A stretch of DNA of 59,417 bases, the filler included. It is 6 parts of 6 records of this genome, joined end to end, with 100 filler letters (N's around TTAATTAATTAA, not from the genome) between each part and the next. Parts side by side here need not be neighbours in the genome. Positions count along the whole stretch, not along the records: positions 1 to 8,498 come from SRR31147125_5746; 5 more parts are not named here. One strand, 5' to 3'. The position numbers and the translations under genes are program-made. The notes beneath the pieces are model-generated. The model was not told where the DNA came from. It made no database searches and worked only from the letters and a program-made list of their open reading frames with translations. This document shows positions 1 to 41,764 of this stretch, piece by piece (the first letter of the stretch is position 1; every line of letters begins with the position of its first letter).

Positions 1-48
1 AAGAAGAATAGACCATTTTCTAATCCATTTACTATAAACTAAAATTTG

Positions 49-76
49 AAGCCCCGGCCAGTAGGTCGGGGCTTTT
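49..76 (+). terminator. Intrinsic terminator of a truncated upstream + strand gene
   Basis: Hairpin AAGCCCCGGCC-agta-GGTCGGGGCTT followed by a T-rich tail; lies just after a TAA near 42 that ends the frame KKNRPFSNPFTIN*. Confidence 0.7.
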
Positions 77-263
77 ATTTTCAACCCGAAATATGCATTA
101 AAAAATCTATTCCGAGCCGAAAATGCCTCAAAACAAGACACTTCGTCAACTGATAAAACTTCTCCATAACAATACTATGTTTGTATTCTTCAAGCTCTTG
201 TTTTATTGCATTCCGCGCTCATTACAAAGTTCTAATGCATAATTCGAGTTTAAACAAAGGCAT

Positions 264-301
264 AAAAAAACAAGGAACCAAAACTACGGCTCCCTGCTTT
301 T
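264..301 (-). terminator. Intrinsic terminator downstream of the large T9SS cargo gene
   Basis: Minus strand GCAGGGAGCC-loop-GGTTCCTTGT then T7, about 27 nt after the stop at 328. Confidence 0.75.
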
Positions 302-327
302 CAATTATTATCAGTCCGAACTACGTT

Positions 328-3300
328 CTAATCTCTATCCAGAATTATTTTCTTGACAGCCATTACGTCTCCCGCCTTTACCATAACCAAATATGTACCG
401 GAAACATGATCTGACATATCCAGCTGAAGGTTTTCTCCTTTCATAAATGTTTTACGAATTACTTCTGCGCCGTGCATGTCGAACACAAGAACCTCGGATG
501 CTGCACTTATAACATTCTCAACGCCAATATTAATAAGGCCGCGTGTTGGATTTGGATGAACTGTTATATCTATTTTACCTGAATACAATTCATTAATACC
601 CACAATAATATTATCCACACATAGCTCAAACACATTGGAAGCTTTTTCTCCGGCAAGGTCGGAAGCTTGCAGAACAATATTATAACAACCGGTATCGGCC
701 AACATTGGAGCAAAATCAATAATAAATGTATCTGTTTCGCTGGTTGTGGTAATCCATTCCGGTAAACTGCCCTCTTCTAACTCAAGTTTATATTCCAGTT
801 CTGAATCATCGACATCTCCAAACCAGTCTCCCACGATTTTGCTTAGACTCAACCTAAGAGTTTCGGTAGCTTTTACATGTCGCTCTTCCACAGGTTGAAC
901 AACAAAAGGAGCATCGTTAACCGCATTCACCTTTAAAACGAACTGCTCTGAAACACTTACTCCCTGGTCATCTTCAACATAAACAGAAATAGTATCAACA
1001 CCACTTTCATTTGGATTCAACACGATATCAAGAGTCCCTGATATTTCGGGTGCAACATAATTTACTGCAAGTTCTGAAACCAGGCTATTATTAACATTTG
1101 TTGCTGTTACTAATACTTCCTGCGAGCCACAATCCTTGCCTCCTGATATACCTTCCAAAGCAACTGTCACCAAGCTGTCTTCATCAACAACAATATCCTG
1201 AATATCGTTAATTGTTGGCAATGCATTTTCGGAATACACACGAACCTTTACCTTGCATTCTGAAGAATTTCCTGCCTCATCAGTAACCGTAACTGTTATT
1301 TCCGGACGACCTACATCTTCACATTTAAATGCTGAAGGAACAATAATTACATCCAAATCATCAAATGCCGTAACGTTATCGATTGTTCCGCGAATAATGG
1401 AACTTCTGTCCGCCTCATCCAACACGTACCTTCTTCCTTCAATTAAATAAATACTAATTGGATTACAATCAACCTCCGGAGCGATATTATCAACAGCATC
1501 CGGGTCATCGCCATCAACTAAGCCATCGCAGTCATTGTCAATACCGTCGTAATATTCCGTGGCTCCCGGATATACCGAAGCACTAGTATCATCACAATCA
1601 ATGTCTGCACAATATCCATCACCATCTGCATCACCGGCAGCATCGTTACCCGAACACTGGTCACAAGAATCTCCAACATTGTCGCTGTCCGAGTCGGCCT
1701 GGTCTCCGTTTGGAGTCGCGGGGCAATTATCACAAACATCACCAACACCATCGGCATCGGCATCGGCTTGATCAGTGTTTGCAATGGTCGGGCAATTATC
1801 GCAAGCATCACCTACACCATCGCCATCAGCATCAGACTGATCATTAACAGTCACGGGGCAATTATCACAAGCATCCCCGATTCCATCACCATCAGCATCG
1901 GCTTGATCCGTATTCATAATACCAGTACAGTTATCACACGTATCACCAACTCCGTCGCCATCAGAATCGGCCTGGCCTCCATTTGAATCATAAAGGCAAT
2001 TATCACAGGCATCACCTACGCCGTCACCATCAGAATCCTCCTGACTTAAATTAGAATCAACAGAGCAATTATCACAATCATCAGGAACTCCATCTCCATC
2101 AGTATCTAATGTATCATCTCCTCCCGGACAAATATCATTACAATCAGCAACTCCATCTCCATCGTTATCTGTATCGGCAACTCCACAGCCACAAACTCCC
2201 GGGTCTGTTTTTCCAGGATCATTCGGACAATTATCGTTGCAATCGGCTGTGCCATCGCCGTCAGAATCGACATCAGCAACACCACAGCCACAAACACCTG
2301 GCTCAGTTTTATTTGGATCGTTCGGACAATTATCGTTACAGTCTGCTGTACCATCGCCATCTGAATCAGTATCGGCAACTCCACAACCACATATTCCAGG
2401 AGCAATTTTATTTGGGTCATTTAGGCAGGCATCGCAGCCGTCCGGTACTCCGTCGCCATCAGTATCAACGTTATCATCAGCACCCGGACAAATATCACAG
2501 GCATCGCCAACACCATCGCCATCTGAATCTGTCTGATCGTTAACCGTTGCCGGACAATTATCGCAAGCATCGCCTATTCCGTCGCCATCCGCATCTGCCT
2601 GGTCAGCATTACTAACACCAATACAATTATCTACATCGTCACAAACTCCATCACCATCCGAACCATCATTAGTAGGATCTAATGGACAAGGATCTCCTGA
2701 ATCACAATAACCATCACTATCGGAATCAACTCCATCATTAGCAGGAAGATTATCAGCCAACGGTCCAAAATCATCGGTTCCAACAGAACAATCATCACAT
2801 CCATCGCTATCAGCGTCTTGACAAACATCAGGATTCAGTGGTTCAGAATCATCAGCATCTGCAACACCATCATTGTCATCGTCCAAATCGCCTGCATCGC
2901 AAAGTCCATCTCCATCAGTATCAATTCCATCGTTAGCAGGGGCATTGTCCGGCAATGGTCCAAAATCATCGGTTCCGACAGAACAATCGTCGCAGCCATC
3001 ACCATCAGCATCCTGGCAGACATCTGGATTTAACGGCTCAGTATCAGAACCATCTGCTACGCCATCATTGTCATCGTCTGCATCGCCAGCATCGCAAATT
3101 CCATCCCCATCGGTATCAGGTCCGTCGTTATTAAAATCATTGTCTGGTAATGGTCCAAAATCATCTGTACCTACAGAACAATCGTCACATCCGTCACCAT
3201 CGGCATCCTGGCAGATATCGGGATTTAATGGCTCAGTATCTGAACCGTCTGCTACGCCATCATTGTCATCATCATCGTCGCATATATTATCAATTCCATC

Positions 3301-5187
3301 TCCGTCAGTATCTGTACCTGATGCATTAACGGTAACCAAAGAGGTGCAATTATCCACATTACCTGCAGCATCTTCAACATATAAAGTTACCGTCACAGGA
3401 GACCCAGCAATATCATCACAATCAACAGTGGCAGGAACAACATACATATTGCTTATCCCAATATTATCGCTTGAACCATTATCAATATCGGCAACAACAA
3501 GTGTATAAGAACCGGTTGCATCCAATTCAACAGTAACAGGCTGACAACTGGCTACCGGAGGAACATCATCAATTATAGTATACGTACAACTGACCTTTGC
3601 AGCCGGATTAAATTCGGTATTATCATTACCCGACCAGTAATCCACATTATTAATAAGTGCCGCCAATTCAGCAGGTCTTCCCTCTAACGTTGTACCCGGC
3701 GGAAGCAAGTCACAATCGAACTGCCAATTATCAACTTCTGTCTCAGGCGGACCTGAAGAATATAATCGAATAGCATTTACACCATTTGTCAACTGATCGG
3801 GCAGAGCAGACTCATCGTTAGTGGTATTTTGTCCATCCCAATCAGCATCATTGGTAAGAAGTTGAGTTACTGTGTATGCCGGCCAAAAATATCGGTGAAT
3901 CAGCAGTTCCTGGAATGCAAAAATCTGGTCTCCAATAGATGCCAATATACTTCCTGTAATAAAACTTCCGGGCAGGGTAATAATGTCGCCGGCACTCATG
4001 TCGCTACCGGCGTACCAGGTTGCAGTTCCTTCCGATTCTCCAATACATGAAATAGTATTGGGATTAGTAACACCGCAGTCTGTAAATTTTATATTGGTGC
4101 CTTCAATTACATCTCGCAATAAAATAAATGCAAACGAATCGTTTCCATCCAAATTAAAACCAACAAAAGCAATATCGCCGGCCATTAATGCCGTTGAAGG
4201 CGGCTCTTCAACTGTTAAAGTAAGGTTACAATTATCTGTATTTCCGGCCTCGTCGGTTGCAGTTAACACAATTGTATGCGTACCGACATTAACCAAAGAA
4301 CCTGCTTCAGGAGATTGTGTAATTGCGATATTACCAACTTCCGACACATCATCGGTTGCAGTAGTTGCAGAAACCAAATCGGGCACTGCTGCCAAGCCGT
4401 TTGTTTCGGCTACAATGGGGGCCGGTGTTGGGGCACATGTTATTTCGGGCGGTGTTACATCCGAAGCTCCTGTAATACTAAATGAACAAGGGAAAGGATT
4501 TATTGAAAAAGAAGTAATATTTGAAGCATCAATATCCCAGTTTGCCAGATTACAAATTGCAGTTCTAAGAGCGGCTGTTGTTCCTGAAGTTACAGAGCAA
4601 TTATACTTAAAATTGTCTTTCTCTGTGGGTCCGGATTGATAAACCCAAATTGCAGTTCCTCCGTTTGTTAATGCATTTGGAAGTGCAGATGTTTTATTCG
4701 AAACCGCCGAGCCGTCCCAATTACTACTGTTCGAACCGGTTTCCACATTCCAGTGGATTCCCGCAAGAAAAGTTGGACTTGCCTCGCTTCCCTGGTAGGC
4801 AAAAATTTGGTCTCCCAAATAACTAATTAAGATTTCGCCGGAAAGAGAGCCGGTCGAAGCAATTCTGTTTTCAGGAGCCAGAACTCCATTAATTGAAGTC
4901 TGAACATGAACAACTTCTCCTGCAGTTAGTGCACTTACTGCTGTCCATACCAAACCGTCATAATCTCCATCGGTTGCATAAAAGCTTCCGGGAGAGTCAT
5001 TCCAGCCCTTATCTGTAAAATTAATAGATGTTCCTGTTTCTACATCTTTCAATAGCAGAAACGCAAAATCATCGTTCCCATCGGAGTTAAGACCAACAAA
5101 AACAATGTCTCCGGCCGATAGGTTTGTTTGTGCATTCCCAATTAATAAGACAAAAAGAAAAGCTAAAAGCAAGGTTAACTTTTTCAT
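328..5187 (-). CDS. Large T9SS-secreted surface protein: signal peptide, duplicated N-terminal domain, HYR-like domains, thrombospondin type-3 repeats, MopE-like motif, cadherin/Ig-like domains, T9SS C-terminal sorting domain
   Basis: Sec signal MKKLTLLLAFLFVLLIGNA; many DxDGDGxGDACDNCP repeats; DVTPPEITC; DCDD...YPGATE...DGIDNDCDG; C-terminal HPNPTRG...SGTYLV...KKII. Confidence 0.9.
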   Translation of the reverse strand: MKKLTLLLAFLFVLLIGNAQTNLSAGDIVFVGLNSDGNDDFAFLLLKDVETGTSINFTDKGWNDSPGSFYATDGDYDGLVWTAVSALTAGEVVHVQTSINGVLAPENRIASTGSLSGEILISYLGDQIFAYQGSEASPTFLAGIHWNVETGSNSSNWDGSAVSNKTSALPNALTNGGTAIWVYQSGPTEKDNFKYNCSVTSGTTAALRTAICNLANWDIDASNITSFSINPFPCSFSITGASDVTPPEITCAPTPAPIVAETNGLAAVPDLVSATTATDDVSEVGNIAITQSPEAGSLVNVGTHTIVLTATDEAGNTDNCNLTLTVEEPPSTALMAGDIAFVGFNLDGNDSFAFILLRDVIEGTNIKFTDCGVTNPNTISCIGESEGTATWYAGSDMSAGDIITLPGSFITGSILASIGDQIFAFQELLIHRYFWPAYTVTQLLTNDADWDGQNTTNDESALPDQLTNGVNAIRLYSSGPPETEVDNWQFDCDLLPPGTTLEGRPAELAALINNVDYWSGNDNTEFNPAAKVSCTYTIIDDVPPVASCQPVTVELDATGSYTLVVADIDNGSSDNIGISNMYVVPATVDCDDIAGSPVTVTLYVEDAAGNVDNCTSLVTVNASGTDTDGDGIDNICDDDDDNDGVADGSDTEPLNPDICQDADGDGCDDCSVGTDDFGPLPDNDFNNDGPDTDGDGICDAGDADDDNDGVADGSDTEPLNPDVCQDADGDGCDDCSVGTDDFGPLPDNAPANDGIDTDGDGLCDAGDLDDDNDGVADADDSEPLNPDVCQDADSDGCDDCSVGTDDFGPLADNLPANDGVDSDSDGYCDSGDPCPLDPTNDGSDGDGVCDDVDNCIGVSNADQADADGDGIGDACDNCPATVNDQTDSDGDGVGDACDICPGADDNVDTDGDGVPDGCDACLNDPNKIAPGICGCGVADTDSDGDGTADCNDNCPNDPNKTEPGVCGCGVADVDSDGDGTADCNDNCPNDPGKTDPGVCGCGVADTDNDGDGVADCNDICPGGDDTLDTDGDGVPDDCDNCSVDSNLSQEDSDGDGVGDACDNCLYDSNGGQADSDGDGVGDTCDNCTGIMNTDQADADGDGIGDACDNCPVTVNDQSDADGDGVGDACDNCPTIANTDQADADADGVGDVCDNCPATPNGDQADSDSDNVGDSCDQCSGNDAAGDADGDGYCADIDCDDTSASVYPGATEYYDGIDNDCDGLVDGDDPDAVDNIAPEVDCNPISIYLIEGRRYVLDEADRSSIIRGTIDNVTAFDDLDVIIVPSAFKCEDVGRPEITVTVTDEAGNSSECKVKVRVYSENALPTINDIQDIVVDEDSLVTVALEGISGGKDCGSQEVLVTATNVNNSLVSELAVNYVAPEISGTLDIVLNPNESGVDTISVYVEDDQGVSVSEQFVLKVNAVNDAPFVVQPVEERHVKATETLRLSLSKIVGDWFGDVDDSELEYKLELEEGSLPEWITTTSETDTFIIDFAPMLADTGCYNIVLQASDLAGEKASNVFELCVDNIIVGINELYSGKIDITVHPNPTRGLINIGVENVISAASEVLVFDMHGAEVIRKTFMKGENLQLDMSDHVSGTYLVMVKAGDVMAVKKIILDRD
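2130..2430 (-). repeat. Three intragenic 99-bp (33-aa) Cys-rich tandem repeats
   Basis: Unit NDPNKTEPGVCGCGVADxDSDGDGTADCNDNCP; ccaca(g/a)ccaca recurs at 2183, 2282 and 2381. Confidence 0.85.
2730..3315 (-). repeat. Three intragenic 195-bp (65-aa) tandem repeats
   Basis: ggtccaaaatcatc recurs at 2762, 2957 and 3152; unit DTDGDG...EPLNPDVCQDADGDGCDDCSVGTDDFGPL. Confidence 0.9.
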
Positions 5188-5374
5188 TATGGTTTGTAGT
5201 TTAATTTATTTATTCTTGAGCCATTTTTATAATTTTCAGCATAGTTATACCTTTTACAGAAAGCATTCATAAAATTGAACCATGCCCAAAGAAGATTTCT
5301 TTCACATAATTTTAGCTCAGTATTAAAACCTGCCTTCCAGCTAATTTATGCTAAATACCAAAAATGAACAACGT

Positions 5375-5878
5375 CTAATTTCGTGAAGGATAAAGTCCTT
5401 CAAGAGCAATAATAAAATTCACACACTGATAAGGCGGCATGTTATTTACAGGCTGCCCACCTCCGGCACTTGATGCGGGCATTGTTGTTCCATCAGAACC
5501 GGTTGCAAATGAATTTGTTCCACTACCGGCAATATAGTTACCATCGGGAGAATCGGTATTCGCCTCTTCATTAGCATTAACGGGATGAGTATGCGCGGGC
5601 ATTTGACTTACAGTTAGGGTATTTGTCTCTGTTCCCCACTTTTCGCCTATACCTCTATAGCTCAATCCGGGGCCTTGACCCATGTGCATTGGAAAACGCC
5701 CTCTTAAATCGGGCACGCCAAAGGTAGTTCTTCCATCACCACCATAAGTTGTTCCTAAAAGTGAAAATAATGTTGAATACTGACTAATTGGCAATAGCTG
5801 CCCATTACAGAAAGCCCAACCTCTTGGGGCAAACGAGCCTCCAAACATTTTAATTTCTCCAATAAACGGTTCTGCCAT
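5375..5878 (-). CDS. Phage tail-collar domain protein (microcystin-dependent protein / MdpB-like)
   Basis: PFIGEIKMFGGSFAPRGWAFCNGQLL...LFSLLGTTYGGDGRTTFGVPDLRGR; HTH motif; C-terminal NMPPY...FIIALEGLYPSRN. Confidence 0.92.
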   Translation of the reverse strand: MAEPFIGEIKMFGGSFAPRGWAFCNGQLLPISQYSTLFSLLGTTYGGDGRTTFGVPDLRGRFPMHMGQGPGLSYRGIGEKWGTETNTLTVSQMPAHTHPVNANEEANTDSPDGNYIAGSGTNSFATGSDGTTMPASSAGGGQPVNNMPPYQCVNFIIALEGLYPSRN

Positions 5879-5897
5879 AACTTATCTATTTTAATGA

Positions 5898-6893
5898 TTA
5901 ATATTTTTGAATTGTTAAATTTCTTATTTCAACATTAATGTGCGCCGGATAATCAGGCACATAATTAAATACGAATTCTCCTCCAATGTAATTACTTAAT
6001 TCCATTAGCTTAATTGGCGTAGTTAAACCACTGTCTCCTTCTATTAAAAATATGTCTTTATATAATTTTATTGAGGTATAAAGTTTTAACTCATACAACA
6101 CATCTGTTATTTCAGGACAATTTAAAGTTGTCGTACTAAACACATCTTTTATTGTTTCCCTGTTTACTTTCAAAACTTCTCCAACATCAATTCTTTTTTC
6201 ATTTTCAACCTTAAGCTTCTCAGGATTCCAGTCTCCCCGGGTATTAAGCTTTGCTTCTATAATAATCTCTTCAGGAACAAAAATTGCATCCGGTTTCATT
6301 TGGCTATAAAGATTTTGCATTATTGTCACCTGCGGCTCACGGCGCAATGCAGCCTGCATTGTTTCCGAAACTATAATATCATAATCTTTATTAAACTCTT
6401 TCGTTGAAGCATCTTCGAGCAAAAATTCACCTACACTTTTTCTTAACCGCAATCCTGCTGTAATTTTCCGGGCAGAAAGAAGCGAAACTTCATTTATATC
6501 TAATAAGTCAACACTCAGTTCATCCTTACTATAGAGCGTTAATAAAGGAGTAATAAGAGTTGCATAAGGACCGCAACCGGCATACAATAGTTGAATACAA
6601 TTATCGTTTTCTGTTAATTTCTGTTGTATTGCAGCATTAATACCCCGAATAAATTTTGTGGTGCGTTTAAAATCGAATAAGCACTGGGCTGCCTCCGCCG
6701 GCGAAATTGCTTTTCCCGAAGCCAGAATTATTTCATCATCGTTTTGGTTAGATGTATTTACCGATGATAAGGAAGTGAAGACACTGTACATTTTATCAAC
6801 TGCCTGTTTCATTAGGCCAGGTTCTTCGCCACAGTTGAGCAATAACAGTGTTGCATCTTTTAATATTTCAAATTGAGTATTGCCTTTCATCAT
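5898..6893 (-). CDS. Class I SAM-dependent methyltransferase with PRMT-like motifs
   Basis: Motif I YAGCGP; acidic LDIN; DIIVSETMxxxLxxE; upstream DFKRT. Confidence 0.8.
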   Translation of the reverse strand: MMKGNTQFEILKDATLLLLNCGEEPGLMKQAVDKMYSVFTSLSSVNTSNQNDDEIILASGKAISPAEAAQCLFDFKRTTKFIRGINAAIQQKLTENDNCIQLLYAGCGPYATLITPLLTLYSKDELSVDLLDINEVSLLSARKITAGLRLRKSVGEFLLEDASTKEFNKDYDIIVSETMQAALRREPQVTIMQNLYSQMKPDAIFVPEEIIIEAKLNTRGDWNPEKLKVENEKRIDVGEVLKVNRETIKDVFSTTTLNCPEITDVLYELKLYTSIKLYKDIFLIEGDSGLTTPIKLMELSNYIGGEFVFNYVPDYPAHINVEIRNLTIQKY

Positions 6894-7726
6894 CAGGTCA
6901 TTTTCGGGAATGTTCTTTTTTTCAATTGTTCTGATTTATTATACTCTTCCTTAATCGTTTCGAAATAATCAGGTGTTGGAGGTGCAAAAGGTCCTCCAAA
7001 ATATATTCGGTCTTTCAAACTTTCGGCATTCAACCAGTGTTGCATTTGCACTTTGGGCATCTGAAAAGTTGCACCATAATAATGTGGCAATGCATACATA
7101 CCATAAACAATAACAAAACGTGTTCCCGGTGCTTTTCGTGGAATGCCCCTGTGCCAGGCCCGCTGATCTATCAATAAAACATCTTCCATTTTTAAATGAA
7201 TTGCAACTTCATTTTCACCCGTATTCGGCAACATTGAATTATTACGATGCGATCCGGGAATAATCTGTGTCGGACCATGTTCATCATCAATATCTTCAAA
7301 ATAAAACGCGAGAAAAACATCCATGGGGTAATGGTATTCATTACCGGGCATCCCGTCCGGCGACCTGTCTTTGTGCCAATCTGGTGCATATTCACCACGA
7401 GTACTTTCGGTTTCAATAACAATTATTGTAGTATGAATAACAGGCATTGGTTTTGCAACAGAATGCGAAAGCGCTGAAGGCAAAACCTGTCTTCCTCGCG
7501 GAGCAAGTGCAGCTGCTATGTATTGCGGCGAATCATCGGGTATAGTGTAACTAAAACCATTAAAAGTCATTACTTCTTCAAGCTCTTGTTTAAATAGCTT
7601 CACCGATTCACGTTCAAAAACATTTGGCAATACAGCGTAACCATCCCTCTGAAACTTTGATATAAATCCTTCTATTTCGCTATCAGTATATGGAACTGTA
7701 TTAAATTTTAAGGCTACCTTATTCAT
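6893..7726 (-). CDS. Phytanoyl-CoA dioxygenase (PhyH)-family 2OG-Fe(II) oxygenase
   Basis: FQRDGYAVLPNV, WHKD (HxD), GPTQIIPGSH, WHRG and downstream Arg; stop overlaps the next start (TGATG). Confidence 0.85.
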   Translation of the reverse strand: MNKVALKFNTVPYTDSEIEGFISKFQRDGYAVLPNVFERESVKLFKQELEEVMTFNGFSYTIPDDSPQYIAAALAPRGRQVLPSALSHSVAKPMPVIHTTIIVIETESTRGEYAPDWHKDRSPDGMPGNEYHYPMDVFLAFYFEDIDDEHGPTQIIPGSHRNNSMLPNTGENEVAIHLKMEDVLLIDQRAWHRGIPRKAPGTRFVIVYGMYALPHYYGATFQMPKVQMQHWLNAESLKDRIYFGGPFAPPTPDYFETIKEEYNKSEQLKKRTFPKMT

Positions 7727-7806
7727 AAAACAGAATTATACAAACACCCCTGAAGACCGTTTTTACAAAGGGTAAAGACGATAGAATTATCTCGTAAATA
7801 TTACTA

Positions 7807-8346
7807 CTAAACAGAAAGATTAAAGGACACCTCCGAATGATTTGCAAAATCCTTTTTCACAGGGAATAGTTTATCGCCCAGCTGCCTGTTTTTCTCCCAA
7901 TGTTTATCTGAGATATGTGCATCGAAATCGGTAATTACCAATTCTGAATTATAACTGTTCTCCTGCCCTGAAACAATGAAGTTTATCCGGGGCGCCTTTC
8001 CGGCTTGTCTTTCCGGACAGTCAGTCCAAAACTCGTATTCGCCGTTTTTGTCAGCTGTTAATTTTGTATTTTTGCAGTTTAGACTCGAACTTTTTACTGG
8101 GTTCAATATTTCTATTACGGCACCCGGTTGTGGATTTTCCCCTGTTCTATCGTATACAATCCCTCTTACCCGAATATGCTTATTTGTAAGCCCTGCTGTT
8201 CGCAGGTCTAACTTGCAATACATATTATTCCGGACACTCTTTGCTTTACTTTGTTTCAGAAAAAAAGTTGGAAATAGTAGGGTAATAACAGATGACTTTA
8301 TTACATTTTTTAGAAATACTCTTCTATGGTTCACATCACATTGCAT
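7807..8346 (-). CDS. Tat-signal protein with intradiol ring-cleavage dioxygenase-like fold, iron ligands apparently absent
   Basis: RRVFLK followed by a hydrophobic stretch; VRGIVYD..G.P.PGAVIEI; TADKNGEYEFWT..P; APRINF in place of PHIHF. Confidence 0.65.
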   Translation of the reverse strand: MQCDVNHRRVFLKNVIKSSVITLLFPTFFLKQSKAKSVRNNMYCKLDLRTAGLTNKHIRVRGIVYDRTGENPQPGAVIEILNPVKSSSLNCKNTKLTADKNGEYEFWTDCPERQAGKAPRINFIVSGQENSYNSELVITDFDAHISDKHWEKNRQLGDKLFPVKKDFANHSEVSFNLSV

Positions 8347-8498
8347 AATCAGTCAGTCTAACAGTTAAGGTTTGCAATATATAACAATTATGTTATATAT
8401 TGGAAGAAGTAGTTGTTACATATTATTATTGCAACCAATAAAAAAAGCAAGACTATTTAATCTCGCAATAGTGGTTTTCTATTTCCATATCAAAAAAA

Positions 8499-8598
8499 NN
8501 NNNNNNNNNNNNNNNNNNNNNNNNNNNNNNNNNNNNNNNNNNTTAATTAATTAANNNNNNNNNNNNNNNNNNNNNNNNNNNNNNNNNNNNNNNNNNNN
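8499..8598. other. Artificial contig linker
   Basis: N44-TTAATTAATTAA-N44, with stops in all six frames. Confidence 0.98.
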
Positions 8599-8838: not shown

Positions 8839-10926
8839 ATGAAATTGAACAAACAAACAGTACTTTTAACGCTAACCATTGTCGTGTCGACCATGGCTTC
8901 TATGGGGCTTTTTACGCAAGAGCTCAATGCGAATAATTTTGTAGATCTGGCTACTAATCCGACCGAGGTGGCGAACGGGAGTTTTGATGGTGACCTTCGT
9001 GATTCATCAAAAGCGTTCTGCCGCTTTGTTCCTGAACGGTTGGACGATTTTGCCTGGGAGAATGATCGCGTTGCTTTTCGCATGTACGGCCCGAAGATGT
9101 GGAGTATTCCAAAGAAACGATGTGGCAGTGGTATTGATGTATGGGTGAAAAAGGTGCGCTATCCCATTATTAATAAGTGGATGAAAGATAGGCTTGGAGA
9201 CGGTAAAGGGCCCGACAGATACCATGAGGATGAGGGTGAAGGAGCCGACTTTTACTCGGTAGGCAAAACTCTCGGTTGTGGTGGACTCGGATTCTTGGTG
9301 GATGGAAAGCTCCACATCAACCGCCACTATGTAACCCAGAAGGTGATTCAGGGCGAAGGGGATCGCATCGAATTTGAATTGACCTACGCTCCGTTAGAGA
9401 TCGATGGCAAAACCATCACGGAAACCAAGCGAATTAGCATGGAGACGGGCAGTAACCTGTTTAAGGTACAGAATTCCTTTAAAATTTCCGGTGGTGGGTC
9501 GGTAACGGCAGCAATCGGCATCGTATTACGTGAGGGGGATGACGAGCTTCGTCACGGCAGTAACTGGATCGGTTACGCTGAACCGGTAATGCCAAAGAAT
9601 GGTCAGACCTATTGCGGAGTGGTTCTCGACAAACCGGCGGAATTTGAAAAATCTAACGGGCATGCTCTGATGTTGGTACCGGTTAAGGACGGCGAAACCT
9701 TGACGTATCGTGCCGGGGCGGCTTGGAGCAAAGGGCTTGATTTCAAGAATACGACCGAGTGGATGGCGTATCTGCAAAAACAGGCAGGATCAACCCCGCC
9801 GCCGAACTACTTTAGCAAAGTCGACCTTATTAAGGGTGAAACCTCCGAATATTTTAGCGATTGGCCTGCTGAAAAATCACCCGTTGAAATCGGTAAAAAA
9901 GTGTCGGAAAACTTCCATAATTCAGGTCATTATTCAATGCTTGTAAAGCGTGGAGACCAACCGGCTAGAGTTAAAACGTTTGATATAGTCATCTATCCTG
10001 AAATATGCGCTTGGTTTGGCGCAATCAAAGTCGCCCGGGAAACGGGGGATAATGAACTGGCAGAAAAAATGGTTCGCCGTTTTGATCCATATGTAGCGGA
10101 TCTTACCAAACTGGAAGACAGGTTTCATGTGGATTACAGCGTGTTCGGAGTCGTTCCGCTGGAGCTTTATCGACTTACACAGGATGAGCGCTATTTAGAA
10201 ATCGGCATGAAACGGGCTGATGAACAGTGGTCCAAAACAACGCCGGACGGTATCACGGAGCAAGCGCGATATTGGGTGGATGATGTTTATATGATTTCCG
10301 CCATACAGACAGCAGCGTATCGCGTAACGGGCGATTCAAAGTATCTTGAGCGCGCTGCGCTGACCACGGCGACCTATCTGAAAAAGCTCCAGAAAGAGGA
10401 TGGGCTTTTCTGGCATGCCGAAGATTCGCCGTTTGTTTGGGGGCGCGGTGTGGGCTGGTATGCCGCCGGTATGACCGAAATCTTGAAAGATTTATTGCCG
10501 GAGAATGAGCATTACGCACCGATTCTCGCGGGCTACAAAAAAATGATGGCAGCACTCGTTCCTCACCAGAGTGAGTCGGGGCTTTGGCGGCAGTTGGTCG
10601 ACAAACCCGATTCCTGGGAGGAAACATCCGGCAGTGCCATGTTTGCCTACGCCATGGTTACGGGCGTCAAGCGCGGTTGGCTGGACGAACAGCAATACGG
10701 CCCCGTCGCCCGCAAGGCGTGGCTTGCGCTAGTGGATAATCTCGATGAAGCGGGTAACCTGAAAAATGTCTGTGTGGGTACAAACAAAGGCGGACAGGTA
10801 GTGGGCCCAGATTTTGAGGAACAGTACCAGTTTTATCTGGCGCGTCCCCGGTTTACGGGAGACTACCACGGACAGGCTCCCCTTCTTTGGACTGCGGCGG
10901 CACTGCTGGAAGGCAAGGCGGAATAA
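8839..10926 (+). CDS. DUF4861 + GH105/GH88 unsaturated uronyl hydrolase fusion, exported
   Basis: FVPERLDDFAWENDRVAFRMYGP and GIDVWVK (DUF4861); YWVDDVYM, WGRGVGW, ETSGSAMF (GH105/88). Confidence 0.85.
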   Translation: MKLNKQTVLLTLTIVVSTMASMGLFTQELNANNFVDLATNPTEVANGSFDGDLRDSSKAFCRFVPERLDDFAWENDRVAFRMYGPKMWSIPKKRCGSGIDVWVKKVRYPIINKWMKDRLGDGKGPDRYHEDEGEGADFYSVGKTLGCGGLGFLVDGKLHINRHYVTQKVIQGEGDRIEFELTYAPLEIDGKTITETKRISMETGSNLFKVQNSFKISGGGSVTAAIGIVLREGDDELRHGSNWIGYAEPVMPKNGQTYCGVVLDKPAEFEKSNGHALMLVPVKDGETLTYRAGAAWSKGLDFKNTTEWMAYLQKQAGSTPPPNYFSKVDLIKGETSEYFSDWPAEKSPVEIGKKVSENFHNSGHYSMLVKRGDQPARVKTFDIVIYPEICAWFGAIKVARETGDNELAEKMVRRFDPYVADLTKLEDRFHVDYSVFGVVPLELYRLTQDERYLEIGMKRADEQWSKTTPDGITEQARYWVDDVYMISAIQTAAYRVTGDSKYLERAALTTATYLKKLQKEDGLFWHAEDSPFVWGRGVGWYAAGMTEILKDLLPENEHYAPILAGYKKMMAALVPHQSESGLWRQLVDKPDSWEETSGSAMFAYAMVTGVKRGWLDEQQYGPVARKAWLALVDNLDEAGNLKNVCVGTNKGGQVVGPDFEEQYQFYLARPRFTGDYHGQAPLLWTAAALLEGKAE

Positions 10927-11054
10927 CAAAAGAGTAGTAAATGTGAACAAATAACTTTTATCATATGCACATTCGGGGTGGACAGTGTTCCACCTCGTTA
11001 CCTACGTCGACAAAGCCGGCAGCGTGCAGTTGTAAACCTTAAAAAGAAATAAGT

Positions 11055-12890
11055 ATGAAAAAAATGAAACTGATGATAATTTGGCTATTGATCGCTGGCT
11101 ATGTGCTGGCGGAATCAAAGCCGAATGTGATAATAATCATGGCGGACGATCTCGGTTGGCGAGACCTTGCCTGCTATGGCAGCACGTTTTATGAGACACC
11201 GAACATAGACCGTTTTGCGAAAAGTGCGATGCGCTTCACTGAGGGGTATGCGGGGGCTCCATCCTGCTCGCCGACCCGCGCGAGCGTGATGACGGGGCAG
11301 TATCCCGCCCGCAACGGGTTATCCAGCGCAGCAGGGCACATTAAGGAAAAACTGGAGCAGAGGGAGATCTCAGTAGGTCCCGCATTTTGCCGTGGTTTGG
11401 GTCCAGAATCGGCGACGTATTTGGATACCTCTTATTACACACTGGGCGAGGCGATGCGGGATGCAGGCTACGCCACCTCATTTTTCGGTAAGTGGCACCA
11501 AGGTCACAAACCCTACATTCCCGAGAACCATGGCTTTGAAACAGTCTATGGTGGACGCTGGCATCACGGACCTCCGGGAAAAGTTAGGGATCGCAGGTTT
11601 TACCCACCGTGGAACGATTGTGAAACGCTCGATTCCAACCTGCCGGCCGATACCCATGTGGATGATTACATTACCGATATGGCGATCGACTATTTAGCTG
11701 AGCACAAAGACAAACCCTTCTTCATGTGCTTCTGGCCCTACAGCGTGCATGCGCCCTTCCAGAGTAAGCCGGAGTTGATTGAAAAATGGAAAAATAAAAT
11801 CGATCCGAACGATCCGCAACGCTCACCAACGATGGCGGCGATGATTGAGGTGCTGGATGAAAATGTCGGTCGATTAATGGCTACACTGGAGGAAACCGGC
11901 CTGTCCGACAACACGATCGTTCTGTTTCTCTCCGACAACGGGGGTAATATGTATGATGTGGTCGATGGCACTACACCGACCAACAACAAGCCGTTGCGCA
12001 GTGGCAAGTCGAACTCTTTGGAAGGTGGCGTGCGGGTTCCGTTTATGGTTCGCTGGCCCGGGGTCACACAGGCGGGCAGCATTAGCGATGCCATCGTTTC
12101 AACGGTCGATCTCTACGCTACGCTGCTGGATATGACTGGGCAGCCCTTACGCCCCGAAGATCATAAGGAAAGCGTCAGCTTTGTGCCGGCGCTGAAGGGG
12201 GATGCGTATGATCGCCCGCCCTTGCTCTGGGAACGGGCGCAGTTTATGAGCTTTGTGGGTAATCTGCCCAACTCGGTCGTGCGCGATGACAACTGGAAGC
12301 TGATCCGTTACTGGTTCGATGCGCCTGATGGAACACATCGCCACGCACTATATAATCTGGATCTGGATATCAGCGAAACGACGAATGTGGCCGATGCTCA
12401 TCCGGAAGTCACCGAGCGGCTCAAGACGGTGCTGGACCAATTCTTTGCAGAAGAGGGGATCAAGCAGTATCACCCCAACGAGAACTATGACGGTCTTAGG
12501 ATCAACGATTCGTGGGCGGCTCTCTCGCAAGACGGCGATGCTGCAATGCAGAACGGCGTGATGGCGATGAGCAGTAAACAGCCCGGCTTTGGCATCTATA
12601 CTCCGATGACTCCGAATATCTCGGATTACATTTTTCATTTTGAGGCGCGCTCAAAACAGAAGGATGAAATCAAGCTTCAGTGGACTTCTAGAGGGAAGAC
12701 TCAGCGTACAGAACAGGCGAGTCGAACGGTAACATCCGGCAAGGATTGGACCGTGTTCAGTCTGCCGGTTAAAACCACAGGAAATGCAAGTAAGATCTTC
12801 TTGACATTGCCCGAAGGCGGTAACGTTGAACTACGCAATATGCGTTTAGCTACTCCTGAAGGCACTGTAATGATGACGTATGACCGATGA
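11055..12890 (+). CDS. Family S1 formylglycine sulfatase with extra C-terminal domain
   Basis: ADDLG, CSPTR, GKWH, SDNGG and EGGVRVP motifs; signal peptide. Confidence 0.92.
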   Translation: MKKMKLMIIWLLIAGYVLAESKPNVIIIMADDLGWRDLACYGSTFYETPNIDRFAKSAMRFTEGYAGAPSCSPTRASVMTGQYPARNGLSSAAGHIKEKLEQREISVGPAFCRGLGPESATYLDTSYYTLGEAMRDAGYATSFFGKWHQGHKPYIPENHGFETVYGGRWHHGPPGKVRDRRFYPPWNDCETLDSNLPADTHVDDYITDMAIDYLAEHKDKPFFMCFWPYSVHAPFQSKPELIEKWKNKIDPNDPQRSPTMAAMIEVLDENVGRLMATLEETGLSDNTIVLFLSDNGGNMYDVVDGTTPTNNKPLRSGKSNSLEGGVRVPFMVRWPGVTQAGSISDAIVSTVDLYATLLDMTGQPLRPEDHKESVSFVPALKGDAYDRPPLLWERAQFMSFVGNLPNSVVRDDNWKLIRYWFDAPDGTHRHALYNLDLDISETTNVADAHPEVTERLKTVLDQFFAEEGIKQYHPNENYDGLRINDSWAALSQDGDAAMQNGVMAMSSKQPGFGIYTPMTPNISDYIFHFEARSKQKDEIKLQWTSRGKTQRTEQASRTVTSGKDWTVFSLPVKTTGNASKIFLTLPEGGNVELRNMRLATPEGTVMMTYDR

Positions 12891-13121
12891 ATATCTAAAA
12901 GAGAGTCCTTACGTCGTTATCGCGAACGCAATATCATATTAAACTGCTTATCTGCTTTAGACATGTGGAATTAATTATCTAGCTGAAATACTGATGTTTA
13001 TAGAGATGTTGAAATATAGGTCTATTATTTCTGTAATATTTTGAAATAATGTGTATTACACACAAGAGTCGTTTCTTTTACTTGAGCGAAGTAGATAAGC
13101 AGTTAAATTAAAATTATAACA

Positions 13122-14339
13122 ATGAACAAACAAACGGTCCTTTTATTGCTGACCATCGTCGTGTCGATCATGACTTCGACGGGGGCTTTTGCACAAGCAA
13201 TCAATGCGAAAGGTAAAAAGAACTCCACCATTTCTGACCAAAAAAGTTGGCCCGGCCAGTACTATTCTATCGCTATGGCTGAGACAACGTTGGATCGGTA
13301 TCCTGATGCATGGAACTACCCCTGGAAAAGATGGTGTTATCCGGAAGGCTATATATTAATGGGGATCGCCAAGGTTTGGGAGACCACAGGTGAACAGAAG
13401 TACTTCGACTATATTATGAATTGGGCGAATTATTATGTGAATCAAGACGGGAAACTCTCGCATTTTAGAGGGGAATCCATGGACGATATTCTGCCGGGGT
13501 GTGTGCTCTGTTGGGCTTATAAACATACAGGCGATGAACGTTTTAAAAAAGCAGCCACCAAGGTAAGGAGAGCTTTCGACAACTACCCCCGTACAGCTGA
13601 CGGACTGTTTGAGCATAATACCAAAAAGAATGGAGAGGTGTGGGTAGACGGCGTCTTTATGGGGCAGATGTTTTTGACCAAATATGGTGCCTATGTTGGC
13701 GACAGCGAGTATTGTTTTGATGAGGCTGCCAAGCAGCTTCTGCTTCATGAAAATAGACTGAAGAAAGGAGACACAGGCTTACTGCTTCATGCGTGGGACG
13801 AGGACAAGAATGCTTCATGGGCTGATCCGAAGACTGGACTATCTCCAGAGGTTTGGAGCGAAGGGCTTGGCTGGTATGCGCTTGTAATGGTAGAGACCCT
13901 GGATGTCTTTCCGGAAAACCACTCTCGCCGACCAGAGCTTATAAAAGTTGCCCAAAACCTGGCCGAAGGACTTAAAAATACTCAGGATCCTGTATCGGGG
14001 TGCTGGTATTGGATTGTGGATAAAGGCGATCAAGCCGGAAACTGGACAGATGTCTCCGGCAGCTCCATGTTCACCTATTTCATTCAGCGCATGATCGAGC
14101 TGGAGCTTATTGATAAGGAAATCTACGCCCCGGTGGTACAGAATGGCTATAAGGGTATTCTGACTAAAGTCCGTCCGAGTAAACATTATGGCTTGGTCGA
14201 TATTTACGACTCCGCAGACGGCGTTTGTGTGCAAAACAACTACGATGTGTATATCAATCAAACTAAAAGAGTGAACTCTAAAGAAGCCGTGCCGGGATTT
14301 CTATGGGCCACCTGGATTGTTGAAAAGCCGGGAAAATAA
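13122..14339 (+). CDS. GH105 unsaturated rhamnogalacturonyl/glucuronyl hydrolase (YteR-like)
   Basis: WVDGVFMGQMF, TGLLLHAWDE, SPEVWSEGLGW, DVSGSSMF. Confidence 0.88.
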   Translation: MNKQTVLLLLTIVVSIMTSTGAFAQAINAKGKKNSTISDQKSWPGQYYSIAMAETTLDRYPDAWNYPWKRWCYPEGYILMGIAKVWETTGEQKYFDYIMNWANYYVNQDGKLSHFRGESMDDILPGCVLCWAYKHTGDERFKKAATKVRRAFDNYPRTADGLFEHNTKKNGEVWVDGVFMGQMFLTKYGAYVGDSEYCFDEAAKQLLLHENRLKKGDTGLLLHAWDEDKNASWADPKTGLSPEVWSEGLGWYALVMVETLDVFPENHSRRPELIKVAQNLAEGLKNTQDPVSGCWYWIVDKGDQAGNWTDVSGSSMFTYFIQRMIELELIDKEIYAPVVQNGYKGILTKVRPSKHYGLVDIYDSADGVCVQNNYDVYINQTKRVNSKEAVPGFLWATWIVEKPGK

Positions 14340-14517
14340 CTCCCGTGAAGACTAACTGACTTTGAGCGGAGGGCTTACCTGAATGTCGCACAGTTGATTA
14401 GCGCGACAACCATTTTTAAGGAGCTGACTGCCAAAGACTGCATACGTTGATGAAATTATAAATTAAGGATTATTGCTCCGCCTATAGGCGGCGAGTGAGA
14501 TAGAAAAAAGTAATAAT

Positions 14518-16995
14518 ATGAAAGCAGTAAAAAAGTGGATTATAATGTGGATCGTGCTGTTTGCGGCGTTTGGCACCTGGGCAGCGGAGAAGAGCGTTAA
14601 TGTTCAGGACGACGGGGCGAGTTATAACCGTGCGGCGGATCCGCATAACTTCACCGTCTTTATGAAAGAGAGCGGCTACTGCTGGTTCGAAGATCCGCGC
14701 GTAATTGTGAACAACGGTAAACTGATCATCGGCGCGATACAGGGGAATGGATCCGGTGCGGCACATGTCGGCGTTTATGACCTCGACGCAAATAAGCCGC
14801 TCGGCACGGCGCTGATGCAGGATAACTTTGACCGCGATGACCATAACTCGCCAGTTTTTTATGCCCGTCCCGACAAACGCATTCTTTCGGTGTATGCAAA
14901 GCACCATAGGGATTCTGTGTTTTACTACCGCATTTCGAAGCGGAAAAAACCGCTAAAGTGGGGCAAGGAAAAGATATATAACACCAAGGCGAGGGCTACA
15001 TATTCCAATCTTTATGAGATGAAGAACGAGGGGAAGCTTTACAATTTCTTCCGAGGCATCGAATTCAATCCGACCTTTGTCACCTCTACCGATGGCGGAA
15101 AAACGTGGGGCGAAGAGACTCATTTTATCTCCAGCGAGCTGAGCGGAACGCACCGACCATATTGCCGGTATGCGGGAAACGGAACCAATACCGTCTATAT
15201 CAGTTTCACCGATGGACATCCGCGTAGGGTGAGTAACAGCATTTATTATGCAGAATTCCGCAATGGCAAGTTCTGGAAGGCGGACGGAACGTTGATCAAG
15301 GATTTGAAGGTTGATGGCCCGCTGCGTCCGAGCGAGGCGGAGCTTATCTATAAAGGCTCTGGAGCGACGAAGCAGAGAATTAAGGGAGCTCCGGACACTA
15401 GCGTTCCGGACGGCGCATGGACCAGCTCGATGGTGACGGATAAAAACGGCTTCCCGCATATCGGCTATTCGGTTCACAAAACAAAAGAAGATCACCGCTA
15501 TCGCATCGCTTCCTGGGATGGAAAACAATGGCACGACCGGGAAGTGGCATACGGCGGATCAGCGCTCTACGATGGCGAATCGAGTTATACGGGGCTGATC
15601 ACGCTCGATCCGGTTGATCCGACCTATGTCGTCATTTCAACGGATGTCGATCCCTTTAGAGGGGTCAAAAAAATTGCAAACCACGAAATCTACCGGGCAA
15701 AGATTGGATTGACAGATGCGAATACCAAGGCCAATCAACCACGAGTGATCAAATGGGAAGAGCTGACCTGGAATTCGCCCGTGCGCAACCTGCGCCCGAT
15801 CATTGTGCGCGACGGCGACCGTCGTATCATCCTTTGGAATCGTGGGGTTTTCAACTGCTACCGAGATTACCAGATGGATGCGGTCGGCTTTGTGGAAGCT
15901 GTTGAAGATAAGTGTCCAATTACCAAACCGTTCTCGCAGAAAGGCATGCTTGAAGCGATGGAGCTGGCGAAAGTTTTTCAAGAGCGGGGCGGAAAACTTA
16001 ACCCGAACTGGATTGACGGCACCTTCTATACAGGTGTGTTCGCTTGCTATGAAGCCACCGGAAACGAAGCGTTTTTGAATGCAGCGCGCAATTGGGTGAA
16101 ACCACCATTCAGCACGACGAAACCTGCCAATGCCGATGCCATCTGTGCGGCTCAAACATTTGTGGATGTCTATCGGGCCGTTCAAGATGAAGCGCTAATC
16201 GCGCCGATACATAAGATTTTTGAAACCGAATATTTCGGGGTCGATATGCTGAAACGTGAAAAGATTGGGCATGCCAAGTGGGAAGGGGATAGCATACCCT
16301 TTACCGGACGTAACATCTGGTCGTGGTGCGATGCGCTTTATATGGCGCCGCCAGTCATGGCACGAATGGGTGCCGCCACGGGCGATTCACGTTATTTTGA
16401 GCTGCTCCACAAGCTCTACTGGGATACGGTTGATTACCTTTATAGCCCCGAACACAAACTCTTCTACCGCGACAAAGATCGTTTCGACTGGAAAACACCG
16501 GACGGAGAGCCGGCCTTCTGGGGGCGCGGGAACGGCTGGGTAATTGGTGGACTGGTACGTACCATCGATTACATTCCGAAAAGCGATCCGATGCGAGAAA
16601 AGTACATTCAGCTCTTCCGCGATATGATGTCGCGCCTGATTACCTTGCAGGGAGAGGATGGGTTGTGGCGTTCATCCTTAAACGACCCCAACTGGTATTC
16701 GATGCCGGAAACGAGCGGGTCAGGGTTCTTTGTGTTTGCCATGGCGGCCGGAGTCAATCGAGGCTGGCTGGATCGCGAAACCTATCTGCTTGCAGCGAAA
16801 AAAGGATGGAAAGGCTTGGTCGATGTGTTGAACCTCGAAGGAAAAGTGCAATGGTCACAGCTGGTTGCCCTTGCGCCATACCCTGTCAAAAAAGAACATA
16901 CTCGCAGTTACACACAAGGTATCTTCCTGCTGGCCGCTTCGGAAATGTATAAACTCGAAGGCCATCGCAAAGTAACCCCCAAAAAGGCTCAATAA
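14518..16995 (+). CDS. BNR_4 beta-propeller + GH105 fusion
   Basis: DDHNSP and STDGGKTW Asp-box; C-terminal WSWCDALYMAPP, LFYRD, FWGRGNGW, ETSGSGFF. Confidence 0.82.
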   Translation: MKAVKKWIIMWIVLFAAFGTWAAEKSVNVQDDGASYNRAADPHNFTVFMKESGYCWFEDPRVIVNNGKLIIGAIQGNGSGAAHVGVYDLDANKPLGTALMQDNFDRDDHNSPVFYARPDKRILSVYAKHHRDSVFYYRISKRKKPLKWGKEKIYNTKARATYSNLYEMKNEGKLYNFFRGIEFNPTFVTSTDGGKTWGEETHFISSELSGTHRPYCRYAGNGTNTVYISFTDGHPRRVSNSIYYAEFRNGKFWKADGTLIKDLKVDGPLRPSEAELIYKGSGATKQRIKGAPDTSVPDGAWTSSMVTDKNGFPHIGYSVHKTKEDHRYRIASWDGKQWHDREVAYGGSALYDGESSYTGLITLDPVDPTYVVISTDVDPFRGVKKIANHEIYRAKIGLTDANTKANQPRVIKWEELTWNSPVRNLRPIIVRDGDRRIILWNRGVFNCYRDYQMDAVGFVEAVEDKCPITKPFSQKGMLEAMELAKVFQERGGKLNPNWIDGTFYTGVFACYEATGNEAFLNAARNWVKPPFSTTKPANADAICAAQTFVDVYRAVQDEALIAPIHKIFETEYFGVDMLKREKIGHAKWEGDSIPFTGRNIWSWCDALYMAPPVMARMGAATGDSRYFELLHKLYWDTVDYLYSPEHKLFYRDKDRFDWKTPDGEPAFWGRGNGWVIGGLVRTIDYIPKSDPMREKYIQLFRDMMSRLITLQGEDGLWRSSLNDPNWYSMPETSGSGFFVFAMAAGVNRGWLDRETYLLAAKKGWKGLVDVLNLEGKVQWSQLVALAPYPVKKEHTRSYTQGIFLLAASEMYKLEGHRKVTPKKAQ

Positions 16996-17109
16996 TGAAA
17001 TATTGGAAGATCAAGATATGGAGTGTTTTTGTAACCGCCCTGCTTGCAGGTCAGGATTGATAAGTAAGGTATCTATTTGTGAAATAATGTTGAAATATTT
17101 TTTAAATAA

Positions 17110-18146: not shown

Positions 18147-18246
18147 NNNNNNNNNNNNNNNNNNNNNNNNNNNNNNNNNNNNNNNNNNNNTTAATTAATT
18201 AANNNNNNNNNNNNNNNNNNNNNNNNNNNNNNNNNNNNNNNNNNNN
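18147..18246. other. Artificial contig linker
   Basis: N44-TTAATTAATTAA-N44. Confidence 0.98.
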
Positions 18247-33195: not shown

Positions 33196-33295
33196 NNNNN
33201 NNNNNNNNNNNNNNNNNNNNNNNNNNNNNNNNNNNNNNNTTAATTAATTAANNNNNNNNNNNNNNNNNNNNNNNNNNNNNNNNNNNNNNNNNNNN
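33196..33295. other. Artificial contig linker
   Basis: N44-TTAATTAATTAA-N44. Confidence 0.98.
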
Positions 33296-41664: not shown

Positions 41665-41764
41665 NNNNNNNNNNNNNNNNNNNNNNNNNNNNNNNNNNNN
41701 NNNNNNNNTTAATTAATTAANNNNNNNNNNNNNNNNNNNNNNNNNNNNNNNNNNNNNNNNNNNN
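41665..41764. other. Artificial contig linker
   Basis: N44-TTAATTAATTAA-N44. Confidence 0.98.

Follow-up and report, generated by a model that had tools for sequence, protein, structure and literature searches.

Five genes encoded together on the minus strand of one contig (positions 1–8498, record SRR31147125_5746) raise the question of whether a protein built like a phage fibre tip, a set of tailoring enzymes and a giant surface protein belong to one system, and on what the enzymes act. The contig is the first piece of the 59,417-nucleotide stretch of DNA analysed here, referred to as the window. In order of transcription the genes encode a protein related to intradiol dioxygenases with a twin-arginine translocation (Tat) signal (the Tat protein), a PhyH-family Fe(II)/2-oxoglutarate (2OG) dioxygenase (PhyH), an S-adenosylmethionine (SAM)-dependent methyltransferase resembling protein arginine methyltransferases (PRMTs), a stand-alone tail-collar protein (the collar) and a type IX secretion system (T9SS) cargo. 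A preliminary description of this DNA presented them as an undescribed system. They do form a real and coherent module, which is a Bacteroidota variant of a predicted, non-phage cassette type and not an undescribed system, as an operon of PhyH, methyltransferase and tail-collar genes was already predicted by Iyer et al. in 2010 (PMC2938197). What we add to that prediction is the split pair of PhyH and PRMT-fold enzyme, the finding that the methyltransferase depends genome-wide on a collar gene, and the evidence that the Tat pseudo-enzyme truly belongs to the module.

The operons of Iyer et al. contain a beta-hydroxylase, PhyH fused to a methyltransferase, a sulfotransferase and an acetyltransferase besides a tail-collar protein, which the authors suggest is the substrate (PMC2938197). 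The expression of three collar genes and of an acetyltransferase changes jointly in Acaryochloris (PMC11633204). We found no experimental study of collar cassettes in the literature searched, which leaves subscription journals largely outside its coverage; the fibre treated in PMC4237756 belongs to a phage cluster and not to this cassette.

Linkage of the methyltransferase to collar genes

The methyltransferase depends genome-wide on a collar gene, and not vice versa. From the methyltransferase side (METHYLTRANSFERASE), each species was represented by one genome in a scan that gave 330 relatives, and the counts below refer to the best 80 of these loci. A collar gene lies in the fetched stretch, within about 10 kb, in 52 of these 80 loci and at most 600 bp from the methyltransferase in 28 of those 52, while 25 of the 28 genomes whose methyltransferase has no collar gene nearby carry one elsewhere. 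Stand-alone collar genes are themselves common, with a baseline of 56/401 sampled genomes of the order, 33/151 and 25/121 (14–22%). Within a first family sample the methyltransferase occurs in 10 of 33 collar genomes versus 0 of 118 collar-less ones (uncorrected p = 7e-8), within a second, minus the seed genome, in 4 of 24 versus 0 of 96 (uncorrected p = 0.001), and across three samples it is absent from all 234 collar-less genomes. The collar link appears on all main branches of a quick tree of 86 full-length methyltransferases, Acidobacteriota included.

None of 50,697 phage records matched the methyltransferase. Four Pseudoalteromonas replicons did, and the single annotated region among them contains a 2OG-Fe(II) oxygenase and no collar gene; a gammaproteobacterial sample of 280 genomes returned the seed alone. 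No fusion of PhyH and methyltransferase was seen among homologues of 182–580 and 722–2060 aa, a range that leaves out fusions of about 660 aa, nor was a fused frame found in the Bacteroidales, the two family or the gammaproteobacterial genome samples. Five loci (L007, L011, L015, L058 and L233) carry two methyltransferase paralogues, the second of which lies on the opposite strand and belongs to a deep, separate branch.

The other small genes lead to the same cassettes. Three of six close PhyH orthologue loci hold collar genes (L011, which was found via the methyltransferase, L081 and L163), one of the others holds a formyltransferase, one a Nif11 cassette, and one is too short; 0 of 76 distant PhyH loci hold a collar or methyltransferase gene. 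Five pairs of PhyH and methyltransferase, apparently from shared genomes in protein searches, are an indirect sign of further pairs. A Nif11 protein, a sulfotransferase, DUF6916 and GNAT accompany the PhyH orthologue at L083:2555-5792, which ties the PhyH subfamily to the DUF6916/GNAT cassette type.

Genome searches with the Tat protein gave 10 loci, from 5/301 and 6/151 genomes with one shared. In the five strongest orthologue loci it lies directly upstream of a collar gene that is followed by a gene for a large secreted protein; a solute-binding protein follows the collar in one of these five, and the methyltransferase is divergent in four. A sixth locus lies inside a collar cassette, no collar is seen in two weaker ones close to contig ends, and the remaining two encode true 300-aa dioxygenases with no collar. 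The absence of the Tat protein from all 80 methyltransferase loci had suggested a mere passenger, a reading that its own neighbourhoods reject. Two loci have a different, unrelated twin-arginine protein in this position: at L021:11011-11469 and L029:11008-11448, a small protein of this kind without a Pfam match lies between the methyltransferase and short collar genes.

The gene-neighbourhood search that the preliminary description had proposed thus ties each of the four small genes to collar or collar-cassette genes elsewhere, far above chance. Its picture of five genes as a set has to be loosened, as no other examined locus holds all five and four loci hold four. This lack of a second complete locus, together with the window's PhyH subfamily lying beside the methyltransferase in 1 of the best 80 of 330 loci, is what a chance run of unrelated genes or the remnant of a decayed prophage would predict. 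Such an origin is largely refuted by the linkage counts, and we give it a negligible probability: each gene independently recovers the cassette, the 76 distant PhyH loci lack both collar and methyltransferase, the methyltransferase is unmatched in the 50,697 phage records, and the catalytic residues of the enzymes are intact.

An exchangeable set of enzymes

The partners of the methyltransferase are diverse. In the best 80 of 330 loci, a periplasmic-binding-protein fold without a signal peptide was found 29 times, a formyltransferase 20 times and an Asp/Asn hydroxylase (beta-hydroxylase) 13 times, followed by another PhyH subfamily (10), an F5/8 protein (8), a sulfotransferase (7), a carbamoyltransferase and a 2OG oxygenase (6 each), GNAT, adenosine phosphosulfate (APS) kinase and Asn synthase (4 each), the window's PhyH subfamily (1) and the Tat protein (0). 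The binding-protein family (L017:11839-12999 and 28 other loci) mostly ends in a motif of the W-x-N-x-Y-L-C type. Loci were also picked by the collar itself, as a set of 40 high-scoring loci, 20 per sample, from which loci fetched via other genes and long phage-type frames were left out. These contain a formyltransferase and a cargo-type N-terminal domain in 9 loci each, a solute-binding protein in 7 and a lasso-type gene set in 4, and a T9SS-tailed gene follows the collar in 15 of the 40, several others being cut by an end. Collar genes beside the lasso-type set, comprising PqqD/RiPP recognition element (RRE, from ribosomally synthesized and post-translationally modified peptides), transglutaminase-like B2, Asn synthase and a kinase-like protein, were seen at L044, L051, L077, L221, L223, L225 and L231, often with a sulfotransferase and mostly with a formyltransferase.

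The enzymes could produce a small amino-acid- or peptide-derived molecule, for instance N-methyl-arginine that is then hydroxylated, which the collar, with or without the signal-less solute-binding protein, would bind, sense or present. Bacterial PRMT sister groups are reported from secondary-metabolite operons with peptide dioxygenases (PMC3417536), and streptozotocin biosynthesis involves an arginine methyltransferase, SznE (PMC12637814). The solved proteins nearest to PhyH are metabolite enzymes, the best being a leucine hydroxylase (E = 4e-9), and the replacements found in related cassettes include formyl-, acetyl-, carbamoyl- and sulfotransferases and Asn synthase. The frequent binding-protein fold, the lasso-type genes of the collar-picked loci and the Nif11 protein beside one PhyH orthologue point the same way. 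The contig itself, however, contains no non-ribosomal peptide synthetase (NRPS) or transporter genes, and no RiPP precursor peptide, RRE or leader peptidase among open reading frames (ORFs) of at least 80 aa in 1–8498. The methyltransferase tracks the collar genome-wide and no single biosynthetic gene, and it keeps the whole PRMT beta-barrel, the part that serves substrate recognition in PRMTs (PMC13689401). The SznE-type chemistry, the range of acyl-, sulfo- and carbamoyltransferases and the lasso and Nif11 links make small-molecule synthesis a serious rival and the strongest one, if rather unlikely in our estimate.

A methyltransferase with the PRMT fold, coupled to an intact PhyH

Sequence libraries describe the methyltransferase merely as "class I SAM": Pfam profile searches gave weak matches, NCBIfam holds no family describing it, and sequence searches of the PDB returned nothing better than E 0.12–0.36. 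A structural model was built from 60 of 241 homologues (mean predicted local distance difference test score, pLDDT, 94). Every Foldseek row listed for it is a PRMT, and in a comparison with 48,161 representative chains ranks 1–15 are all eukaryotic PRMTs, led by PRMT7 (Z = 20.4, root-mean-square deviation 3.5, 254 residues aligned) at 11–17% sequence identity, while the best match to a non-PRMT methyltransferase reaches Z = 12.1 over 158 residues. By this model the enzyme is predicted to have the full PRMT fold, so that the label "PRMT-like" given to it earlier holds at the fold level. Residues E177, E186, R77, T78 and D161 are invariant in 60 of 60 homologues, and the E177/E186 pair begins directly after the modelled strand 173–176, at a nine-residue spacing that we take to be that of the double-E loop in PRMTs. 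Secondary structure assigned to the model with DSSP shows a short hairpin at the place where, as we assume, PRMTs carry their dimerisation arm. The PRMT core consists of a Rossmann fold, a beta-barrel, a double-E loop and a THW loop, of which the double-E loop positions the guanidino group of the substrate (PMC13689401). The methyltransferase has the first three of these features, and the THW motif was not recognisable. The closest methyltransferases in named genomes belong to the Marinifilaceae, at about 50% identity.

In the PhyH alignment (49 of 85 homologues), H118, D120, H192 and R203 are invariant in 49/49 sequences. An HxD...H triad with an Arg is the iron- and 2OG-binding motif of Fe/2OG dioxygenases, and both the triad and the 2OG-binding Arg are intact in PhyH.

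The PRMT-fold enzyme might act on another acceptor, such as a hydroxyl made by PhyH, whether on the collar or on a metabolite. Iyer et al. describe the methylation of dioxygenase-made hydroxyls in such clusters (PMC2938197), the methyltransferase is translationally coupled to PhyH, and the unseen THW-type motif and the low identity to PRMTs would suit a shifted specificity. The two invariant glutamates, whose counterparts in the double-E loop hold a guanidino group (PMC13689401), argue for arginine instead, and an Fe/2OG dioxygenase accompanies the methyltransferase in just 14 of the best 80 of 330 loci, so that we regard this acceptor as highly unlikely.

The collar, the Tat protein and the cargo

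PDB matches of the collar are phage tail fibres including T4 gp12. It contains one HxH motif (H96/H98) and ends in G-x-Y-P-S-R-N, an instance of the family motif G-x-[FY]-P-x-R-x; among 87 full-length collars, P-x-R-x stands at the C-terminal end in 74 and HxH is kept in 83. Some methyltransferases lie beside mini-collars of about 80 aa, in which the collar core is joined straight to the C-terminal motif without needle or RGR. These were seen at L003, L005, L008, L009, L016, L021, L028, L029 and L036, mostly in triads that follow the methyltransferase and precede an F5/8 plus cadherin-like protein. The RGR motif of the collar, tried as a general methylation site, was set aside with these mini-collars, which lack it. 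A hydrophobic leader is absent from collar, methyltransferase and PhyH alike, which places the three in the same compartment; the collar also has no T9SS tail.

For the Tat protein Pfam gives weak matches, with a profile match to catechol 1,2-dioxygenase at E = 3.5e-6. Of 41 homologues, 13 match Dioxygenase_C and 3 match TAT_signal (PF10518), and R8, R9 and F11 (RRxF) are nearly invariant among them. Compared with two full-length homologues, the iron-binding HxH is replaced (it aligns with R-I-N) and a Tyr-bearing insert is missing. By these alignments the protein is an intradiol dioxygenase beta-sandwich without iron ligands, in agreement with its earlier description as a pseudo-dioxygenase, and its twin-arginine leader makes it a putative Tat substrate.

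The cargo consists of a signal peptide, an unnamed domain, an HYR domain, a second copy of the unnamed domain, a TSP3-like stalk, Ig-like domains and a C-terminal sorting domain. Its N-terminal hydrophobic leader is a Sec signal peptide, Pfam adds TSP_3 and HYR, and two sorting-domain profiles exceed their cut-offs (Table 1), as expected of a T9SS type A substrate. From its repeat family the stalk is inferred to bind calcium. Of 20 large downstream proteins scanned in related cassettes, 13 end in a T9SS tail (E 1e-5 or better). The unnamed domain had no Pfam match in 18 members, and its model (pLDDT 85) found no clear fold match, the best being Z = 7.3 to a DUF4876 protein and Z = 4.4 to the lamin Ig fold. 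It was considered as a docking domain specific for collars and rejected on the share of its matches that lie beside a collar. The short frameshift in its second copy is most likely an assembly error, as a contig of run X1, which is possibly the source sample, differs there by three extra bases and one other letter.

With a collar that lacks both signal peptide and T9SS tail, the cargo rather than the collar might be the modified partner, the collar remaining in the cytoplasm or periplasm, where it would serve as scaffold or chaperone and guide the enzymes to the giant protein as it is made. The needle-less 80-aa collars in triads, the absence of the Tat protein from most collar loci and the T9SS protein that is often directly next would agree with this role. 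The cargoes, on the other hand, have no single common domain as a shared target, for several enzyme-bearing Bacteroidales cassettes the stretch that was fetched shows no large secreted protein, and full-length collars keep their HxH motif; we judge the scaffold role unlikely.

A proposal for the cassette and the points against it

We favour the reading that the collar is modified by the enzymes and acts with the cargo, and give it a probability of roughly 0.4. The signal-less collar would fold as a trimer in the cytoplasm, where the PRMT-fold enzyme would use SAM to N-methylate a collar arginine, for which the penultimate Arg166 of G-x-[FY]-P-x-R-x is the foremost candidate, and the translationally coupled PhyH would hydroxylate another collar residue. 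The metal-free Tat protein could then bind the folded collar and carry it across the inner membrane, and the collar would finally join the Sec/T9SS-exported, calcium-stiffened stalk as a strain-variable tip for recognition or adhesion, the chemistry of which swappable enzymes may diversify. The collar is the most likely substrate given the one-way dependence, the cytoplasm as common location and the PRMT barrel that the enzyme has kept, and the penultimate Arg is singled out because mini-collars keep just the collar core and the C-terminal P-x-R-x. The position of the Tat protein suggests that it carries a folded partner lacking a signal. Folding and modification are better supported than transport and display, and to the Tat-carrier step we give a lower probability than to the proposal as a whole. 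In its boldest form, a dedicated PRMT-type enzyme would modify a domesticated phage fibre tip that a dead dioxygenase carries folded via Tat and that, having no export signal itself, is shown on a T9SS stalk, as a chemically diversified, two-step hitch-hiking surface device; this full version is quite doubtful.

Several observations weigh against the modification of a displayed collar. Seen from the collar side the enzymes are dispensable: the 40 collar-picked loci hold the methyltransferase in 4 and the window's PhyH and the Tat protein in none, although the Tat count omits the five Tat-linked genomes of that family, where 5 of 33 collar genomes gives a fairer picture. From these counts the collar, often with a T9SS partner, emerges as the core and the enzymes as optional and interchangeable, and a fixed five-gene system is not supported. 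The P-x-R-x motif is present also where the methyltransferase is not, and no conserved His-Trp of the THW type occurs in the barrel alignment columns examined in 60 sequences. Mini-collars without a needle do not fit the role of a fibre tip. Carriage by the Tat protein cannot be the general export route, since most collar loci lack it, and crossing of the outer membrane would require a second piggyback on the cargo, as the collar has no T9SS tail. Of 21 matches to the unnamed cargo domain just 5 adjoin a collar gene, those five being among the 6 best. The lasso-type RRE, B2 and Asn-synthase genes, found in 4 of 40 cassettes, and the Nif11 protein elsewhere point to peptide or small-molecule chemistry. 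Finally, the co-occurrence p values are uncorrected for kinship, genome size and genome incompleteness, and in the Bacteroidales subset (76 of 401 genomes, three seeds removed) the methyltransferase occurs in 6 of 53 collar genomes versus 0 of 20 collar-less ones (p = 0.18).

Boundaries of the gene unit and other features of the window

The five-gene unit between two terminator-like hairpins makes up the whole of contig 1–8498, and contigs of run X1 match all 30 bins of it. All five ORFs were recovered on the minus strand in the order and at the places first described, as were the TGATG at 6893, in which the PhyH stop overlaps the methyltransferase start, and the 19-nt gap between methyltransferase and collar; the gaps between Tat protein and PhyH and between collar and cargo are 80 and 187 nt. 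The claim of an intrinsic terminator at the end of the unit is likewise sustained by the downstream hairpin (stem ~297–271, U7 at 270–264), which none of 200 shuffles equalled in stability, and which was not among the sites listed by the terminator consensus scan. A Bacteroidota-type promoter motif was not found upstream of the first gene. A plus-strand hairpin with a T run at 48–75 (z = −4.06) is probably the terminator of a convergent gene beyond the left edge.

Table 1. Features of the gene unit on contig 1–8498
Feature	Position	Strand	Remarks
Tat-signal pseudo-dioxygenase (predicted)	7807..8346	-	179 aa; first gene of unit
PhyH-family Fe(II)/2-oxoglutarate dioxygenase	6893..7726	-	277 aa; PF05721 E 7e-11; no signal peptide
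PRMT-fold SAM-dependent methyltransferase (predicted fold)	5898..6893	-	331 aa; invariant E177/E186; no signal peptide
Stand-alone tail-collar protein	5375..5878	-	167 aa; PF07484 E 1e-30; no signal peptide
T9SS type A cargo	328..5187	-	1619 aa as assembled; last gene
Unnamed N-terminal beta-sandwich domain of cargo, copy 1	4492..5133	-	residues 19–232, ~210-residue domain; copy 2 at 3604–4200
Compensated frameshift in domain copy 2	3850..3915	-	~20 codons; alternative frame matches copy 1
TSP3-like repeat stalk of cargo	1483..3312	-	610 aa, 30% Asp, 51 Cys, 24 DxDxDG motifs; PF02412 E 1e-11
T9SS type A C-terminal sorting domain	340..561	-	residues 1543–1616; PF18962 39.4 bits (cut-off 27), TIGR04183 37.2 bits (cut-off 23)
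Terminator-like hairpin and T run, upstream boundary	8447..8466	-	listed by consensus scan; fold weak, z −1.77
Intrinsic terminator-like hairpin with U7 tail	264..297	-	~30 nt past cargo stop; −23.3 kcal/mol, z −3.19

The window consists of six pieces of differing GC content joined via N/TTAATTAATTAA/N spacers at 8499–8598, 18147–18246, 33196–33295, 41665–41764 and 52373–52472, and since the pieces are separate records, genes on either side of a spacer are not neighbours. The earlier statement that phage and contractile-injection genes are lacking therefore stands for contig 1–8498, where just five genes are found and none encodes a baseplate, sheath, tube or capsid protein, and does not extend to the window at large. 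Twelve genes scanned in the other pieces include glycoside hydrolases, a sulfatase, DnaA and transporters. A separate piece at 8839–18198 with DUF4861-GH88, sulfatase and BNR-GH88 genes is a polysaccharide-degradation cluster unrelated to the collar unit.

Comparison with known systems

The locus is a small, bounded version of the predicted operons with one collar, which makes the prediction of 2010 testable with three cytoplasmic proteins. If a collar arginine is indeed methylated, a named protein substrate would be at hand for a PRMT-fold enzyme from bacteria, which bears on the proposal that eukaryotic PRMTs are of bacterial origin (PMC3417536). Carriage of the collar by the Tat protein, if it takes place, would explain how a signal-less fibre tip arrives at the surface in a subset of Bacteroidota.

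With the operons of Iyer et al. (PMC2938197) the unit shares a PhyH coupled to a methyltransferase beside a collar of the T4 short-fibre type, and the beta-hydroxylase, sulfotransferase, APS kinase and GNAT of those operons are found in relatives of the window's cassette. Here, however, two overlapping genes encode PhyH and methyltransferase in place of a fusion, and the beta-hydroxylase and sulfotransferase are absent from 1–8498, although they occur in 13 and 7, respectively, of the best 80 of 330 related loci; because of this absence the unit is a variant and not a full member of that group. In their account of these operons, Iyer et al. do not call the methyltransferase PRMT-like and mention no T9SS cargo, Tat protein or formyltransferase.

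The collar shares its domain and HxH motif with phage fibre tips (T4 gp12; PF07484, PF21939), from which it differs as a stand-alone protein of 167 aa with no shaft or baseplate anchor, with a family-specific C-terminal P-x-R-x, on a contig without phage genes. The Tat protein has the homologous beta-sandwich of the intradiol ring-cleavage dioxygenases (PF00775), but it is shorter, has lost the iron ligands, and has gained a twin-arginine leader and a fixed place before the collar gene. Like other T9SS type A cargo proteins (PF18962, TIGR04183), the large surface protein combines a signal peptide with a C-terminal sorting domain, whereas the two copies of its unnamed N-terminal domain, the long stalk of TSP3-like repeats and its link with a collar cassette set it apart. 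The eukaryotic enzymes PRMT7, PRMT5 and PRMT9 have the same Rossmann fold and beta-barrel over about 250 residues (Z = 18–20) and likewise a pair of invariant glutamates that follows the fourth strand at a spacing of nine residues; the methyltransferase described here differs from them in its single domain, its lack of a recognisable THW-type motif and what appears to be a short hairpin in place of the dimerisation arm. It also differs from its predicted bacterial PRMT sister groups, in that it sits not in an NRPS cluster but in a surface-protein cassette.

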